A stretch of 64,000 bases of DNA, from the sequence record NC_054908.1. One strand, given 5' to 3'. The notes beneath the pieces are model-generated. The model was not told the DNA's origin, searched no databases, and worked only from the letters and a program-made list of their open reading frames with translations. A program made the translations under genes and the position numbers. This document shows, one piece after another, positions 1,311 to 25,665 of the stretch (positions are counted from its first letter, which is position 1; each line of letters begins with the position of its first letter). Origin of the DNA: Escherichia phage vB_EcoM_DalCa.

Positions 1311-1570
1311 AAAAGATTCCTTTTAATGTATCTTTTAGACCATTCTATCATATCATCATAATCTAAAAAGTATTCATCAAATTCAGCCATGCAAACAACA
1401 CCTTGTGCTGTTTTTGATGTAATATAAATTATTCCAACATATCTAGAATCTTCTTCGGTATAATCAATATTTGCTATGAATTCATCATTAATGTCAAATG
1501 TCGAAAACTTCACAATATGCATCCTTAATACAAGATACAGCCATATCTCGTAATGATTTAGGTGTGTCAT
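1307..1570 (-). CDS. Hypothetical small early protein (46.1-like position)
   Basis: 87-aa ORF between genes 47 and 46, same strand, tight packing. Confidence 0.45.
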   Translation of the reverse strand: MTHLNHYEIWLYLVLRMHIVKFSTFDINDEFIANIDYTEEDSRYVGIIYITSKTAQGVVCMAEFDEYFLDYDDMIEWSKRYIKRNLL

Positions 1571-1757
1571 TATCTAAAATGTTGAAGTTAAAAGATACAG
1601 CCCAGTCAGTGCAGACCGTAACCTTTTTAATACAATTATCTTCAACCTCTAGCGGTTCAAACCAATATTCAATAATTTCTTTATGACCAATATCATCTTT
1701 TACTTCGCATTCAAAATGCTGACTCATCATAACATTTTTAAATTCATCAAAAGTCAT
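1494..1757 (-). CDS. Hypothetical small early protein (46.2-like position)
   Basis: 87-aa ORF abutting stop of gene 47; overlaps the next ORF so true start may be internal. Confidence 0.45.
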   Translation of the reverse strand: MTFDEFKNVMMSQHFECEVKDDIGHKEIIEYWFEPLEVEDNCIKKVTVCTDWAVSFNFNILDNDTPKSLRDMAVSCIKDAYCEVFDI

Positions 1758-18815: not shown

Positions 18816-19796
18816 TTATTTCAGAAGAGTAACCTCAGCGATTTCTTCCCAACCGTTTTTGTCGGTCATAATAAAGTCAGCAAGATAAAGTGCAGTACGC
18901 AGTGAAACATTGCGTAAACGATTAACATTAACTTTCATCCATGATAATGCTTTATAAGTTTCTTCATCAGAAAGACCGCGTTTTTGCATCATGTCAGTTG
19001 AAAGAATAACATCTTCAACCCTGACCATAATTTCTTCATTAGTGTGAACACCCAAATCCAAATAAACTGAGCGGGAAACTAATGCTTGTAAATGTGGAGC
19101 AAGTTTAGTACCACGGTCTAATTCGCGGTCAATGTCAACGTTTGTGATAAAAACAATCGTTCCTTTAAATTCAAACTCACGCTCAATGCCTTTTTCTTCT
19201 AAGTAAGAAGATGCGGTGCTCCAGCAGACTTTACGGGTCTCTCCGGTGTCCAGAGCAGCTTTCAGAAGATTAAGAATGTCCATATCAGAGAAAACATCCA
19301 CATCATCAATCAAAAGGACAGAATTCTCTTCACGATTATTCCAAAGCTGTTCATAAAGACCGATACCAGAGATTTTACCATTAATGCTTTTATATTCGAT
19401 GTATCCAATATCATTTGCTTTATTTAAAGCTTTATCTAAAGAATACGTTTTACCAATACCTGCTGCTCCAGAGATAATTAATGAACGAATGTTTCCGTTA
19501 ATAATACCATTCGTCATCATTCCCATAACATTAAATCTTTTATTAATGCGGGTTTTCATATCTTCATACGATTCTTTAACTTCTTCAACTTTTACACCAT
19601 CATATGAAATGTCTGATTTGTAAACCCAAACACCGCGACGCTTACCGTCAATTTCAACAAAAACTTTACCATCTCCTTGTGCATCTACCGGAGCATTATC
19701 TGGGAACCATTCACCTAAGAGCTCAAAAGTTCCAGAGATTTCTTTACCGAAGTAGATACCCTTATTGATAGTTACAGTTTTCATTTTATTCTCCAA
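18816..19796 (-). CDS. Predicted P-loop NTPase (AAA-like)
   Basis: 326 aa; Walker A GAAGIGKT and Walker B-like VLLIDDVD; early-type promoter upstream. Confidence 0.6.
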   Translation of the reverse strand: MENKMKTVTINKGIYFGKEISGTFELLGEWFPDNAPVDAQGDGKVFVEIDGKRRGVWVYKSDISYDGVKVEEVKESYEDMKTRINKRFNVMGMMTNGIINGNIRSLIISGAAGIGKTYSLDKALNKANDIGYIEYKSINGKISGIGLYEQLWNNREENSVLLIDDVDVFSDMDILNLLKAALDTGETRKVCWSTASSYLEEKGIEREFEFKGTIVFITNVDIDRELDRGTKLAPHLQALVSRSVYLDLGVHTNEEIMVRVEDVILSTDMMQKRGLSDEETYKALSWMKVNVNRLRNVSLRTALYLADFIMTDKNGWEEIAEVTLLK

Positions 19797-20345: not shown

Positions 20346-20376
20346 TTTGAAATAAAAAGGGAGCCCGAAGGCTCCC
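20346..20376 (-). terminator. Intrinsic terminator downstream of nucleotidyltransferase-like gene
   Basis: On minus strand GGGAGCC-UUCG-GGCUCCC followed by UUUUUAUUUC. Confidence 0.65.
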
Positions 20377-20378
20377 TA

Positions 20379-21392
20379 TCATTTATAATAACTTCGGTGG
20401 TTTTCAAGATAGACCTTCTCAAGGAAGTCATCCCAGAAACTCATGTCTACTGTTTTAGGCATACCGTTCTTAGAAGCTTCAATAGATGCTGCTTCTACTT
20501 GATCGACCACATCTTCCAAAAACTCTTGAACCGTTTTAAATGGATGTTTACCCAACTTCACGTCGAGAATAAATGGAGCATCTTGGAGTGGATAAACCAA
20601 GTCACCAGTTTTGTAAATTTCCAATAGTTGGAGTCCACCACGGCAAGCATGACTCAGAGCTTTCCAGTCAATACCTTCATTGGCTTCGGCCTTACGAGCA
20701 CGTTCACCATATTCAGCATCTAATTTGTTCAGTGACTGCTTAAGCTCAATAAGAGAAAGCGTTGTCTGATATTTACGACCCAACACAGTGTAGAACGTTT
20801 GTGGGCCTGTTTTCTCATGATTATGGAACACCCATTCACAGAATTCGTTTTCTGGAAGACGATGCTTAATATCTTCAACTTTAGTGCGACGCTGCTTAAT
20901 AGAACCATCTTCTTGGTAATCAATCCACTGCTCAGGGATTTGATTAACTACTTTCAATACATCACGTAATGCAGCCAAACGAGAACCCTTGACACCGTAT
21001 TTAGAAGCTTGCTTGCGGACATATCCTAAATAGGATTTCATGTTAGTCGTATAAAAACGAGAACGGTTGTCTTGAATAAACTTCCACACATCAGGCAAAT
21101 CAGATTTAACCACTAGTTCAGGTGGAGTGTGAAGCATATCCAATGCTACAGTTTCACCATCTGCTGCTAATTTAAAGAAATATTTAAGACTGTATAGTTC
21201 ATGGTCAATATCATCTTTAGTGTTTTTAGATGATGTGTTGTTAGTGTTTTTACTCATGTGCTCTTTGACATTTCCGATAAGAATATCACGAGCAGGAGGA
21301 ACAAAAATTTCTTTAAAATCTACATCAGATTCTGGGGTAGAAGTTCCATAAAGATGACTACCAAAATAGCTTTTCATTACTGTTTTCATCAT
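20379..21392 (-). CDS. Predicted nucleotidyltransferase-fold protein (Pol-beta superfamily-like)
   Basis: 337 aa; N-terminal GSHLYGTSTPESDVDF matches the GS...D.D nucleotidyltransferase signature; strong terminator hairpin downstream. Confidence 0.55.
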   Translation of the reverse strand: MMKTVMKSYFGSHLYGTSTPESDVDFKEIFVPPARDILIGNVKEHMSKNTNNTSSKNTKDDIDHELYSLKYFFKLAADGETVALDMLHTPPELVVKSDLPDVWKFIQDNRSRFYTTNMKSYLGYVRKQASKYGVKGSRLAALRDVLKVVNQIPEQWIDYQEDGSIKQRRTKVEDIKHRLPENEFCEWVFHNHEKTGPQTFYTVLGRKYQTTLSLIELKQSLNKLDAEYGERARKAEANEGIDWKALSHACRGGLQLLEIYKTGDLVYPLQDAPFILDVKLGKHPFKTVQEFLEDVVDQVEAASIEASKNGMPKTVDMSFWDDFLEKVYLENHRSYYK

Positions 21393-21856
21393 TCAGCCTT
21401 ATATTCAATAACAGGACATACTTTAGCTTTACGAGCTTTTAAAAATTCAACGATAATCGATTTCTTGGGTTGAATAGGAGGTAAACCTTTATACGCCCTA
21501 TCAATATTTTCTATGTGTAAAGCATAATCCTTTTTCCATTTATAATCTTTATATTTTTCATGCAAATGTGCAGGAATAACAAATGAACCGATAATAAGTA
21601 AAACAACCAAAAGTGCAAGTATAAATGCCGATGGAAGAAGAGTCCATAAACTACCGAAAATAAGCCAACGTTGTAAGCTTTCTGCACAAATAATTGTTAG
21701 CCCTACGAGTATAGCACATCCAAAAATAGAAACGAAAAATGTAGGAATGGCAATAGACCAAAAATATGCGCATAGTGTCTTAGGTCGTTGCCATTCATCG
21801 TTAAACAATTTGAATAATTTATAGTGCCAAGAGTTTTCATTAATAACCATAATCAT
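21389..21856 (-). CDS. Hypothetical polytopic membrane protein
   Basis: 155 aa; three or more hydrophobic helices. Confidence 0.5.
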   Translation of the reverse strand: MIMVINENSWHYKLFKLFNDEWQRPKTLCAYFWSIAIPTFFVSIFGCAILVGLTIICAESLQRWLIFGSLWTLLPSAFILALLVVLLIIGSFVIPAHLHEKYKDYKWKKDYALHIENIDRAYKGLPPIQPKKSIIVEFLKARKAKVCPVIEYKAE

Positions 21857-21858
21857 AA

Positions 21859-22380
21859 TTATCCTTTCATTGAAGGCGTAACGGTTGTTAAATACTTAAT
21901 CATAGCTTCAGCTTCTGATTTTGATAATGAAATTTCTCCATTGTTTTGACGAATAGAAATAAAATCCGGATGACGGTCACCACCAGCTTTTAAAACACAC
22001 ATATAAGTATCAGTTTCACCTTCAATATTTGAAATGATTGAAGCAGTTCCACATGAATGCGGTTTTTGATAAATCAATGCAGCTTTTCTTCCGCCATTTG
22101 ACTGCTCATAGGCTTTTAATACATCAAGCAAATCAGTTCTTTTATCAATAGCTAAAATGTTATTTTCATCTTCAATGTTAAATCCTTCGGATACTTCATA
22201 AAGTGTTACCCATAAATCACCAATGTCAATAACAGCATTTACTTTTCCACGGCTTTCAAGAGTATGACAAATTTTCTTGATTTCGTCATAACTCATTTTA
22301 ATAATATCATCTCCTTGACTAAGGAAGATGTCATTTTTAAATTCAACACGAATTAAACCGCTTCCACTTGAAATAAACAT
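21859..22380 (-). CDS. Hypothetical protein (paralog of 22387..22932)
   Basis: 173 aa; shares FNIEDE and a C-terminal motif with its neighbour. Confidence 0.5.
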   Translation of the reverse strand: MFISSGSGLIRVEFKNDIFLSQGDDIIKMSYDEIKKICHTLESRGKVNAVIDIGDLWVTLYEVSEGFNIEDENNILAIDKRTDLLDVLKAYEQSNGGRKAALIYQKPHSCGTASIISNIEGETDTYMCVLKAGGDRHPDFISIRQNNGEISLSKSEAEAMIKYLTTVTPSMKG

Positions 22381-22386
22381 ATTTCC

Positions 22387-22932
22387 TCACTTTGAAATCA
22401 TAGTTGGAATGACAGAATCAAGATAAGTCTTTAGCGCAATAGCTTCGTCTTTGGTAAATGTGACAATATGTGCTCGAAAATCATCAATTTGACGAATAGT
22501 TAAGACATCTCCATCTTCATAACATTTTGATACGTTTAAAACAGTTTCATCATTCTGATTGCAAGCGTTAGTAATAATAGCATTGCAATTTTTAAACCAT
22601 TTTAAACTATGTTTTCTTTCATTAGAATAATAAAAATATTTAATCTTATCTATAAAACTATCCCAATGGATAACTGATAAGCATATTGACTCGCTTTCAA
22701 TATTAAATCCTGGGCATGAAGAATAAAAATGAATTTTATGCTCATCATTAATGCTTACAATTTTATCAGTATAAGGATTTTCAATTTTGGTTAAATGAAT
22801 GATTTCACTAGGCGTAAAATACAGCATATCGTCTTCTTGTGTCAAACGATACATATTATTTACTTTTTCTATAGCCAATTCACCAAAAAGTGAACTAACT
22901 TCTAATACTAATCGTTTCGCCTCGCTCATCAT
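22387..22932 (-). CDS. Hypothetical protein (paralog of 21859..22380)
   Basis: 181 aa; FNIESE and C-terminal ...LKTYLDSVIPTMISK similar to the neighbour. Confidence 0.5.
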   Translation of the reverse strand: MMSEAKRLVLEVSSLFGELAIEKVNNMYRLTQEDDMLYFTPSEIIHLTKIENPYTDKIVSINDEHKIHFYSSCPGFNIESESICLSVIHWDSFIDKIKYFYYSNERKHSLKWFKNCNAIITNACNQNDETVLNVSKCYEDGDVLTIRQIDDFRAHIVTFTKDEAIALKTYLDSVIPTMISK

Positions 22933-23064
22933 TACATACTCCTCTGAATCATATCAATAATGTTGTTCACCAGATTATAAGTAAACATTGGGTAATTATA
23001 TTGAATCACCACATACACAACAAACAAAACTTTCATTCTCTTCTCCTTGGCAGTTGACAAGATT

Positions 23065-23093
23065 ACTATATCATAACCTTGCCAACTTGTAAA
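23065..23093 (-). promoter_or_regulatory. Candidate T4 early-type promoter upstream of 22387..22932
   Basis: Minus -35 TTTACA, 17-bp spacer, -10 TATAGT. Confidence 0.4.
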
Positions 23094-23259
23094 CCATTAA
23101 ATGACGTTTTCGATAAAATTCTGAAGCTTTGTATGAGCATCAACCATGATTTTCATTTCTTCTTTAGCGAAAGCTGTACCTCTTTCCCGAGAAGAATACT
23201 CATAATCAGAAACTGCATTAGCATATTCTTCAATTAGCTTCATTAAAAACATCTGCTTT

Positions 23260-23454
23260 TCAGTTTTCATTATTCCACCTAATCATTTCAAGATATTGAA
23301 CTAACTTAGCTTTAGATTTATCCAAATCCTTTTTAGCTGATTCTATACCATCGTATGAATATCCTTCACAATGCTCAACTGCTAATTGGTATGAATCTAT
23401 TTCAATATCACGTGCTAATTTAATGATTTTTTCAAACTGTTCGCGTGTTAGCAT
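23260..23454 (-). CDS. Hypothetical protein
   Basis: 64-aa ORF. Confidence 0.4.
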   Translation of the reverse strand: MLTREQFEKIIKLARDIEIDSYQLAVEHCEGYSYDGIESAKKDLDKSKAKLVQYLEMIRWNNEN

Positions 23455-23456
23455 AA

Positions 23457-23696
23457 TTAAACTCTAGTATTATGATCGATAATTTCATCAAGAAACATAT
23501 CTAACGCTTCTAAAGCATTATCAACTTTAGCTTCAAGTTCATCAATGCCTTTATTTGCAATGCCTGACGAAAACCAAGCAAAGTCACTAAGTTCCTCGTC
23601 TGCTTTACGAATTAAAGCTACCAATTCTTTAATCTTATCCGCTTGTTCGATACTAATCATTATTCCACCACATATGAAAGAGAGAATATTGCACAC
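23457..23696 (-). CDS. Hypothetical protein
   Basis: 79-aa ORF. Confidence 0.45.
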
Positions 23697-23910: not shown

Positions 23911-23939
23911 AAAATGAAAAAAGTCTCCCGAAGGAGACT
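23911..23939 (-). terminator. Intrinsic terminator downstream of 23944..24330
   Basis: On minus strand AGUCUCC-UUCG-GGAGACU followed by UUUUUUCAUUUU. Confidence 0.65.
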
Positions 23940-25479: not shown

Positions 25480-25665
25480 TTAAAGCATATTCACATAAGC
25501 TATTAATTCGTTTTCTTTCTTATCAAACCGATCAGCAAATTCTTCTTGCTGTTCGGGAGATAGCGGGCCGTATTCATCATAAAAGGTGTTTGCTTCTGTA
25601 TGCTCATCTAGAAGTTCATGGATAAGCTCAAACAATTTATCTTTTTGTTCTTTACTCAGACTCAT
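25480..25665 (-). CDS. Hypothetical acidic protein
   Basis: 61-aa ORF. Confidence 0.45.
   Translation of the reverse strand: MSLSKEQKDKLFELIHELLDEHTEANTFYDEYGPLSPEQQEEFADRFDKKENELIAYVNML

Follow-up and report, generated by a model that had tools for sequence, protein, structure and literature searches.

The stretch of DNA analysed here (the window) comprises 64,000 nucleotides of Escherichia phage vB_EcoM_DalCa (NC_054908.1), a T4-like phage of the genus Tequatrovirus. Over the 2 kb that surround the gene pair under study, the sequence shares 99.2% identity with Escherichia phage AugustSocin, and matches were found in 506 phage records. A preliminary description of this DNA had pointed to two adjacent open reading frames that lie beside a membrane-protein gene within an accessory block, and both frames were located exactly as claimed, at 22387..22932 and 21859..22380 on the minus strand. 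The upstream frame (gene B, 181 aa) is the ortholog of mobD.1 and belongs to the T4_y05I family, and the downstream frame (gene A, 173 aa) is a divergent paralog, RB32ORF097c. The neighbouring genes are arranged in the order tk, rI.1, rI, rI.-1, mobD.5 to mobD.2, B and A, the membrane-protein gene, nrdC.11, and nrdC.10. The membrane-protein gene (gene M, RB32ORF096c; 21389..21856, minus strand) lies downstream of the pair, as described. It encodes a 155 aa protein that contains a pair of long hydrophobic segments and ends in a strongly basic, lysine- and arginine-rich tail, and was assigned by its match to PHROG 944 ('membrane protein'), by hydropathy, and by alignment of homologs.

The genes of this segment are tightly packed. 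The unit opens with mobD.2 (22932..23060, minus strand; 42 aa), and the stop codon of this gene and the B start overlap (TAATG). A starts 6 nt after the B stop, with the ribosome-binding site GAGGA, and M starts 2 nt after the A stop. The start of nrdC.11 (20379..21392, minus strand; Pfam RlaP, PHROG 388), the last gene of the unit, which encodes an RlaP-family (Pol-beta) nucleotidyltransferase, overlaps the M stop by 4 nt (ATGA). A promoter-like site (TTTACA-17-TATAGT, with TG upstream; 23065..23093, minus strand) precedes mobD.2, a terminator-like hairpin with a T-run is present directly 3′ of nrdC.11 (20358..20377, minus strand), and a strong hairpin terminator is found 3′ of rI.-1 (23939..23922). 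A promoter and a terminator are annotated at the equivalent places in phage Lutter, and NR1 also has a terminator annotated after nrdC.11. The tight packing, together with the promoter-like site and the terminators, delimits a co-transcribed unit of mobD.2, B, A, M, and nrdC.11.

A second local paralog family of the accessory block lies just upstream of the pair. It consists of tandem small paralogs with the DUF7438 domain (PF24219), namely mobD.2a (23097..23270), mobD.3 (23260..23454), and mobD.4 (23457..23696), and a further copy is found upstream of tk (25480..25665), all on the minus strand. NrdC.10 (18816..19796, minus strand), whose gene has a separate promoter region, is a P-loop AAA/STAND-like ATPase. 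In several public records, nrdC.11, nrdC.10, and mobD.1 are wrongly labelled as 'thioredoxin' or as 'molybdopterin-guanine dinucleotide biosynthesis protein MobD'. NCBIfam contained no model for A, B, M, NrdC.11, or NrdC.10.

A and B Belong to the MobD.1 Family

BLASTP aligned A and B with 30% identity and 51% positives over 176 columns (E = 1e-11), and the alignment is collinear from residue 3/12 through 171/178. The Smith-Waterman score was 115, compared with 31.2 ± 5.3 (maximum 64) for 2000 shuffles (z = 15.7). The preliminary description had based the relationship on two shared motifs, and in the pairwise alignment each of these fell on its counterpart, in the same order, over the full length of the proteins. 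The FNIE[DS]E motif, located in repeat II (see below), starts at residue 67 in A (FNIEDE, residues 67-72, 22165..22182) and at residue 76 in B (FNIESE, residues 76-81, 22690..22707). The C-terminal motif starts at residue 156 in A (EAEAMIKYLTTVTPSM, residues 156-171, 21868..21915) and at residue 163 in B (EAIALKTYLDSVIPTM, residues 163-178, 22399..22446), with all four segments on the minus strand.

Both proteins carry the same two Pfam domains. The N-terminal domain (T4_y05I_N, PF24449) covers residues 2-95 of A (22096..22377, minus strand) and residues 8-104 of B (22621..22911, minus strand), which are predicted to contain repeats I and II (each β4-α in B); the scores were 115.4 bits for A and 130.1 bits for B, against a gathering cut-off of 24.9. 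C-terminal to it in both proteins, the second domain (T4_y05I_C, PF24448) covers residues 102-171 of A (21868..22077, minus strand), the predicted repeat III, and residues 109-178 of B (22399..22608, minus strand), the predicted repeat III with a conserved helix and tail; here the scores were 82.1 bits for A and 74.6 bits for B, against a cut-off of 27. PHROG 1502 was also matched by both proteins. B is 84% identical to T4 MobD.1 and occupies the same locus, between mobD.2 and nrdC.11, and the identity of A to B and to the MobD.1 type is 28-30%. The pair is located where T4-like genomes carry the T4_y05I family, with the mobD.2-side genes on one flank and nrdC.11 on the other. These findings firmly establish the homology of A and B, and place both genes, each of them under selection (see below), in the MobD.1 family. 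The family is already catalogued in Pfam, and the paralogy is already on record in GenBank, where the RB14 record notes RB32ORF097c as 'similar to mobD.1' and RB32ORF096c as 'replaces mobD'. In place of the earlier label, "unknown function", the pair can accordingly be assigned to a family that is catalogued in Pfam and for which a PUR/PC4-like fold is predicted.

Distribution and History of the Two Copies

At a protein identity of at least 90%, A was found in 431 phage records, and a 58% variant is present in T2. B-type proteins were found in 727 records, including those of Mosigvirus (about 46-48% identity) and of Gaprivervirus and Dhakavirus (about 33%). These population statistics are BLAST counts from the phage collection; a locus scan of IMG/VR returned only 7 loci. 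In the related genera, the gene is present as a single copy (Mosigvirus LH01, Gaprivervirus P896, and Dhakavirus dhaeg), and an M homolog and nrdC.11 come directly after it.

In a neighbor-joining tree with 50 bootstraps, for which the most distant full-length member served as the root, B grouped with the single-copy genes of Mosigvirus with 92% bootstrap support, and this group joined the Dhakavirus/Gaprivervirus clade at 92%. The A clade branched outside all of these, a placement in which long-branch effects are possible. Identity between A and B is 28%, whereas B shares 46-49% with its Mosigvirus orthologs. The two copies are therefore not mutual closest relatives in this tree, as the products of a recent tandem duplication would be, and the position of A outside the clade of B and its orthologs argues that A is not a recent local copy of B. 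The local gene duplication proposed earlier is thus supported in part: the two genes are true tandem homologs, but a duplication in the simple local sense is not borne out. Judged from the sequences, A could be an old duplicate that was lost elsewhere, a fast-evolving duplicate, or an acquisition by recombination from a more distant T4-like phage.

A is absent from T4. There, the HNH homing endonuclease gene mobD exactly replaces A and M (T4 AF158101.6, 4121..4900, versus 21389..22380 of the window). The mobD allele was found in 47 records, compared with about 430 for the A+M allele, and is thus the minority state; since all 47 records are at least 99% identical, the replacement is recent.

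Word-indexed and exhaustive protein searches confined the family to T4-like phages (52 clusters), and found no informative domain fusions. An exhaustive profile search of 1.84 billion representatives revealed only 28 proteins at E < 1e-3, many of which are stand-alone C-terminal domains of about 70 aa. No gene for such a stand-alone domain was found elsewhere within the 64-kb window. A literature search on 'y05I' returned nothing relevant, and one on 'MobD.1' returned one table entry, naming the mobD insertion site.

Predicted Fold and Repeat Architecture

AlphaFold2 models, built with a 32-sequence alignment, revealed the same pattern in A and B. Each model consists of three blocks, with four or five β-strands followed by a helix in each block. 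In the B model (mean pLDDT 78; about 90 at residues 10-100, and 54-83 in the C-terminal domain), the predicted strands at residues 7-39, 57-87, and 109-160 are followed by helices at residues 41-48, 90-103, and 161-179, respectively. The A model (mean pLDDT 70; 82-92 in the N-terminal domain, and 42-66 in the C-terminal domain) has the strand and helix pattern of B. Structural comparison aligned about 100 residues of the B N-terminal domain to repeats I-II of Pur-alpha, and the fold matches of A and B included Pur-alpha, MRP1/2, Whirly, PC4/Sub1, the T5 PC4 homolog, and YdbC. The predicted models show the topology of PUR repeats (β-β-β-β-α, with repeats I and II forming one domain) as well as that of the PC4-like fold (about 150 aa of β4-α-linker-β4-α, or a dimer of β4-α units). 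A three-repeat, PC4/PUR-like fold of A and B is therefore well supported by prediction.

The PurA, Whirly, and PC4 sequence models were not matched by A or B at E ≤ 1, and the PUR sequence signature is not present, so that membership in the PUR family proper is unsupported, and the relationship is at the level of the fold only. A fold search of BFVD yielded no viral relative with a functional annotation, the matches being confined to family members and low-TM noise. A relationship to CsoS1D, the sole match of a profile search in PDB sequences (E = 0.53), was rejected as spurious.

Similarity among the repeats was also detected in sequence comparisons. The HMM of the C-terminal domain also matched repeat I of B, in the same β3-β4-α register (conditional E 2.5e-4), and hhalign related repeat I to repeat III at P = 0.001 with a probability of 22%, a weak and only supportive signal; no relationship of repeat II to repeats I and III was found with hhalign. 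The DUF7189 profile was aligned by hhalign, in the same register, to repeat I (81% probability) and to repeat III (63%), which suggests that DUF7189 proteins are single-repeat relatives. More distant T4-like phages encode these proteins (about 55-67 aa) shortly before the y05I gene (L023, 989..1189 and 1543..1707; L024, 1991..2188; L025, 2057..2239; L026, 1040..1243). A 'Phage_tudor' (PF24144) gene is a frequent upstream neighbour in these distant loci.

Conservation within the family is highest in the helix and tail of repeat III, where the mean identity among nine clade representatives is 55%, compared with 27-32% elsewhere; Tequatrovirus B and its Mosigvirus orthologs are almost the same in this segment. 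PC4-like folds are known to assemble in two ways, with two repeats in one chain (type I), or as a dimer of single repeats (type II) (PMC7549692, Janowski & Niessing). A lone repeat is unlikely to fold alone, and half-domains must dimerise; Pur-alpha was the only reported combination of types I and II in this 2020 review, and its repeat III could permit the formation of Pur-alpha/Pur-beta heterodimers (PMC7549692). The layout of A and B is predicted to be that of Pur-alpha, with repeats I and II joined intramolecularly and repeat III as a half-domain. The low pLDDT of repeat III in the monomer models is expected of a half-domain that needs a partner.

The Membrane Protein M and NrdC.11

M homologs were identified in 13 loci (the window, LH01, P896, dhaeg, L010, L011, L018, L021, and L023-L027), and matched the M of the window at BLASTP E-values of 1e-10 to 1e-57. 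Conserved motifs are found in the N-terminal (NSWH and LC.YFW) and C-terminal (KA[RK]K.K.CP) parts. In all 13 loci, a y05I_C gene is followed by M, at a spacing of -11 to +10 nt. Gene order is generally conserved in T4-like phages, so that this adjacency carries less weight than a comparable one in bacteria would. Between M and the RlaP gene, zero to three variable genes are present, and an RlaP-type NrdC.11 is nearby in most loci. In L027, the RlaP gene lies upstream, and the y05I_C-M junction is still kept. Certain distantly related T4-like phages have a conserved gene of about 180 aa inserted between M and nrdC.11 (L010 4575..5117 and L011 4673..5215). The extra 82 N-terminal positions of PHROG 944 were considered as a fused y05I_C domain, an idea that was rejected, as A and B do not match PHROG 944.

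NrdC.11 matched the Pfam RlaP model at E = 3.9e-11, above the cut-off. RlaP enzymes were reported in a preprint to append one or two nucleotides to damaged RNA 3′ ends (PMC12776372), and were predicted by comparative genomics to act in phage tRNA repair (PMC7824862). T4 has kept an intact MobD.1 without M, indicating that B is not strictly dependent on M, although the replacement by mobD is recent. Joint decay of B, A, and M was seen in the T2 lineage only.

Selection, Broken Copies, and Dispensability

Summed dN/dS values for intact orthologs from seven or eight Tequatrovirus loci were 0.14 for A and 0.27 for B, the latter being slightly noisy, as stop-to-stop ORFs with short upstream extensions were aligned. 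Intact copies of both genes are under purifying selection. Broken copies are nevertheless common. NR1 has a frameshift in A, BMB16 a nonsense codon at position 57 of A, and RB14 a frameshift in B. In T2 (MH751506.1, 2437..3981), frameshifts are present in B, A, and M, with nrdC.11 intact. The annotated M CDS of T2 begins in the wrong frame.

In six metagenomic contigs, the place of the pair is taken by a natural hybrid gene, which joins the N-terminal part of B (about 125 residues) to the A C-terminal domain, indicating that the domains are interchangeable. It is found at L018 3001..3540 (L018-L020, Logan contigs), and the chimeric protein is P0011. In the hybrid contigs, M is mosaic too, with 58% overall identity to the M of the window and an identical C-terminal tail. 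In T4, the nrdC.11-mobD.3 block can be lost, and the phage is still viable (PMC9825161). The breakage of copies in NR1, RB14, BMB16, and T2, the replacement of A and M by mobD in T4, and the deletion of this block indicate that the A/B module is a dispensable accessory, yet it is conserved in nature.

Charge and Alternative Explanations

All full-length family members examined are acidic, with pI values of 4.2-5.6 and net charges of -4 to -22. Among the stand-alone C-terminal-domain proteins, 10 of 11 are acidic, the exception being P0066 (pI 9.16), and the pI of the N-terminal domain is 4.4 in A and 4.95 in B. Characterised nucleic-acid-binding PC4-like domains are typically basic, and the acidity of the full-length proteins argues against classical nucleic-acid binding. 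The Pfam label, 'putative transcription factor', was presumably given on the basis of the fold, and may be misleading, given the acidity of the proteins and the strict association of their genes with one for a membrane protein.

Three other explanations of the pair were weighed. The sharing of motifs might reflect a chance or compositional likeness of unrelated, small, AT-rich phage ORFs. The sole reason to consider this is the low identity of 30%, and no support for it was found; it is refuted by the collinear, full-length alignment that far exceeds the shuffles (z = 15.7), by the two common Pfam domains above curated cut-offs, by the fold predicted for both proteins, and by the existence of a natural A/B recombinant, and its probability is negligible. 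If A were instead a redundant copy in decay that has no separate function, and the pair were on its way to loss, the frameshift in NR1, the nonsense codon in BMB16, the fragmentation in T2, the absence of A from T4, and its fusion with B in the chimera would be readily accommodated. However, intact A is under stronger purifying selection than B (dN/dS 0.14 versus 0.27) and is kept at a protein identity of at least 90% in 431 records, and breakage is not specific to A, since B is also broken in RB14 and T2. A divergence to 28% identity, with both full-length domains kept, further implies long independent maintenance, which makes decay of A very unlikely.

The third explanation, which is the reading of Pfam, holds that A and B are PC4/PUR/Whirly-type binders of single-stranded DNA or RNA. 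Their top structural neighbours (Pur-alpha, MRP1/2, Whirly, PC4/Sub1, and the T5 PC4 homolog) all bind single-stranded nucleic acids. In one version, A and B would be RNA chaperones that hand damaged tRNA to the co-operonic RlaP nucleotidyltransferase NrdC.11, an idea favoured by the operon common to A/B and the RlaP-family enzyme, by the presence of RlaP nearby in nearly all related loci, and by the extension of damaged RNA 3′ ends by 1-2 nucleotides that is reported for RlaP enzymes (PMC12776372). We consider this explanation possible, though rather unlikely. A role as a protein-binding adaptor is moderately favoured over classical nucleic-acid binding, on the basis of charge and neighbourhood.

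A Proposed Role of the Pair

The best explanation, to which we assign a probability of about 0.5, is that A and B are tandem members of the MobD.1 ('y05I') family that diverged anciently, form PC4/PUR-like dimers joined through repeat III, and serve as acidic adaptors or regulators of M. Of its elements, the homology of A and B, the purifying selection on intact copies, the layout of the operon, and the constant position of the C-terminal-domain gene next to M are established. In the proposed mechanism, repeats I and II are predicted to pack as one intramolecular domain, and repeat III is predicted to be a half-domain that folds only by pairing with another repeat III, so that A and B would act as homo- or heterodimers. 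Pairing through repeat III is suggested by the stand-alone repeat-III proteins of about 70 aa, by the dimerisation of half-domains in this fold (PMC7549692), and by the low pLDDT of the monomer models. The helix and tail of this putative half-domain, the most conserved part of the family, correspond to the C-terminal motif flagged in the preliminary description.

The dimers would be soluble, acidic adaptors or regulators of M, most plausibly docked on its basic cytoplasmic tail. Coupling to M is suggested by the adjacency in 13 of 13 loci, including L027, and by the joint frameshifts in T2 with nrdC.11 intact, and docking is suggested by the uniformly acidic family and the lysine- and arginine-rich tail of M. 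The N-terminal domain may bind a further ligand, such as a host or phage protein, or possibly an RNA that is handled by NrdC.11, and the module as a whole would be a dispensable accessory of the host-takeover or counter-defence type. Since single-stranded nucleic-acid binding is the function best known for this fold, the adaptor role departs from the majority function of the fold.

A more far-reaching proposal, which we regard as quite unlikely, is that MobD.1-type proteins are a phage-specific, acidic offshoot of the PC4/PUR fold that has lost nucleic-acid binding, and that dimers formed through repeat III, including those with partners such as the stand-alone repeat-III proteins and the DUF7189 single-repeat proteins, gate or anchor M. 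The dimers, M with its two transmembrane segments, and NrdC.11 would then constitute a membrane-tethered counter-defence module, directed, for example, against RloC-type anticodon nucleases. If this proposal were true, the loss of half of the module to a homing endonuclease in T4 would explain why it has escaped study.

The pair is a real but ordinary accessory feature, and its points of note are the predicted Pur-alpha-like architecture, the invariant membrane partner, and the half-loss in T4. The majority state of the module (431 records versus 47) escaped classical T4 genetics, because mobD had replaced A and M in that phage.

Comparison with Known Systems

The closest known system is T4 MobD.1 (Y05I; PF24449 and PF24448; PHROG 1502), whose two domains are present in A in identical order. 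A falls outside the clade of MobD.1 orthologs, however, and T4 is without any A gene. More distant parallels are found in SsgA/SsgB (3cm1) and in the N-domain of KhtT (7agw), which belong to the same fold class, and are used in protein-protein or membrane-protein regulation; SsgB recruits FtsZ (PMC8061694). These proteins have no sequence relationship to A and B, and their oligomeric states differ, with SsgB forming trimers. The analogy is one of function, and is speculative.

Single-repeat PC4-like proteins, which form domain-swapped dimers, include PC4/Sub1, the phage T5 PC4 homolog (4bg7), YdbC, and Borrelia Bpur (3n8b). They bind single-stranded DNA or RNA, whereas the phage family is acidic, and its ligand is only conjectural. 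We know of no counterpart of the YL(N/D)SVIPTM tail of the phage family among these proteins. The predicted layout of A and B is that of Pur-alpha (PURA; PDB 3k44, 5fgo, and 8chw), in which repeats I-II are likewise combined with a repeat III. If the predicted fold is right, the MobD.1 family would provide a second example of the Pur-alpha-type combination of intramolecular and intermolecular PC4-like assembly, for which Pur-alpha was named as the sole reported case (PMC7549692).
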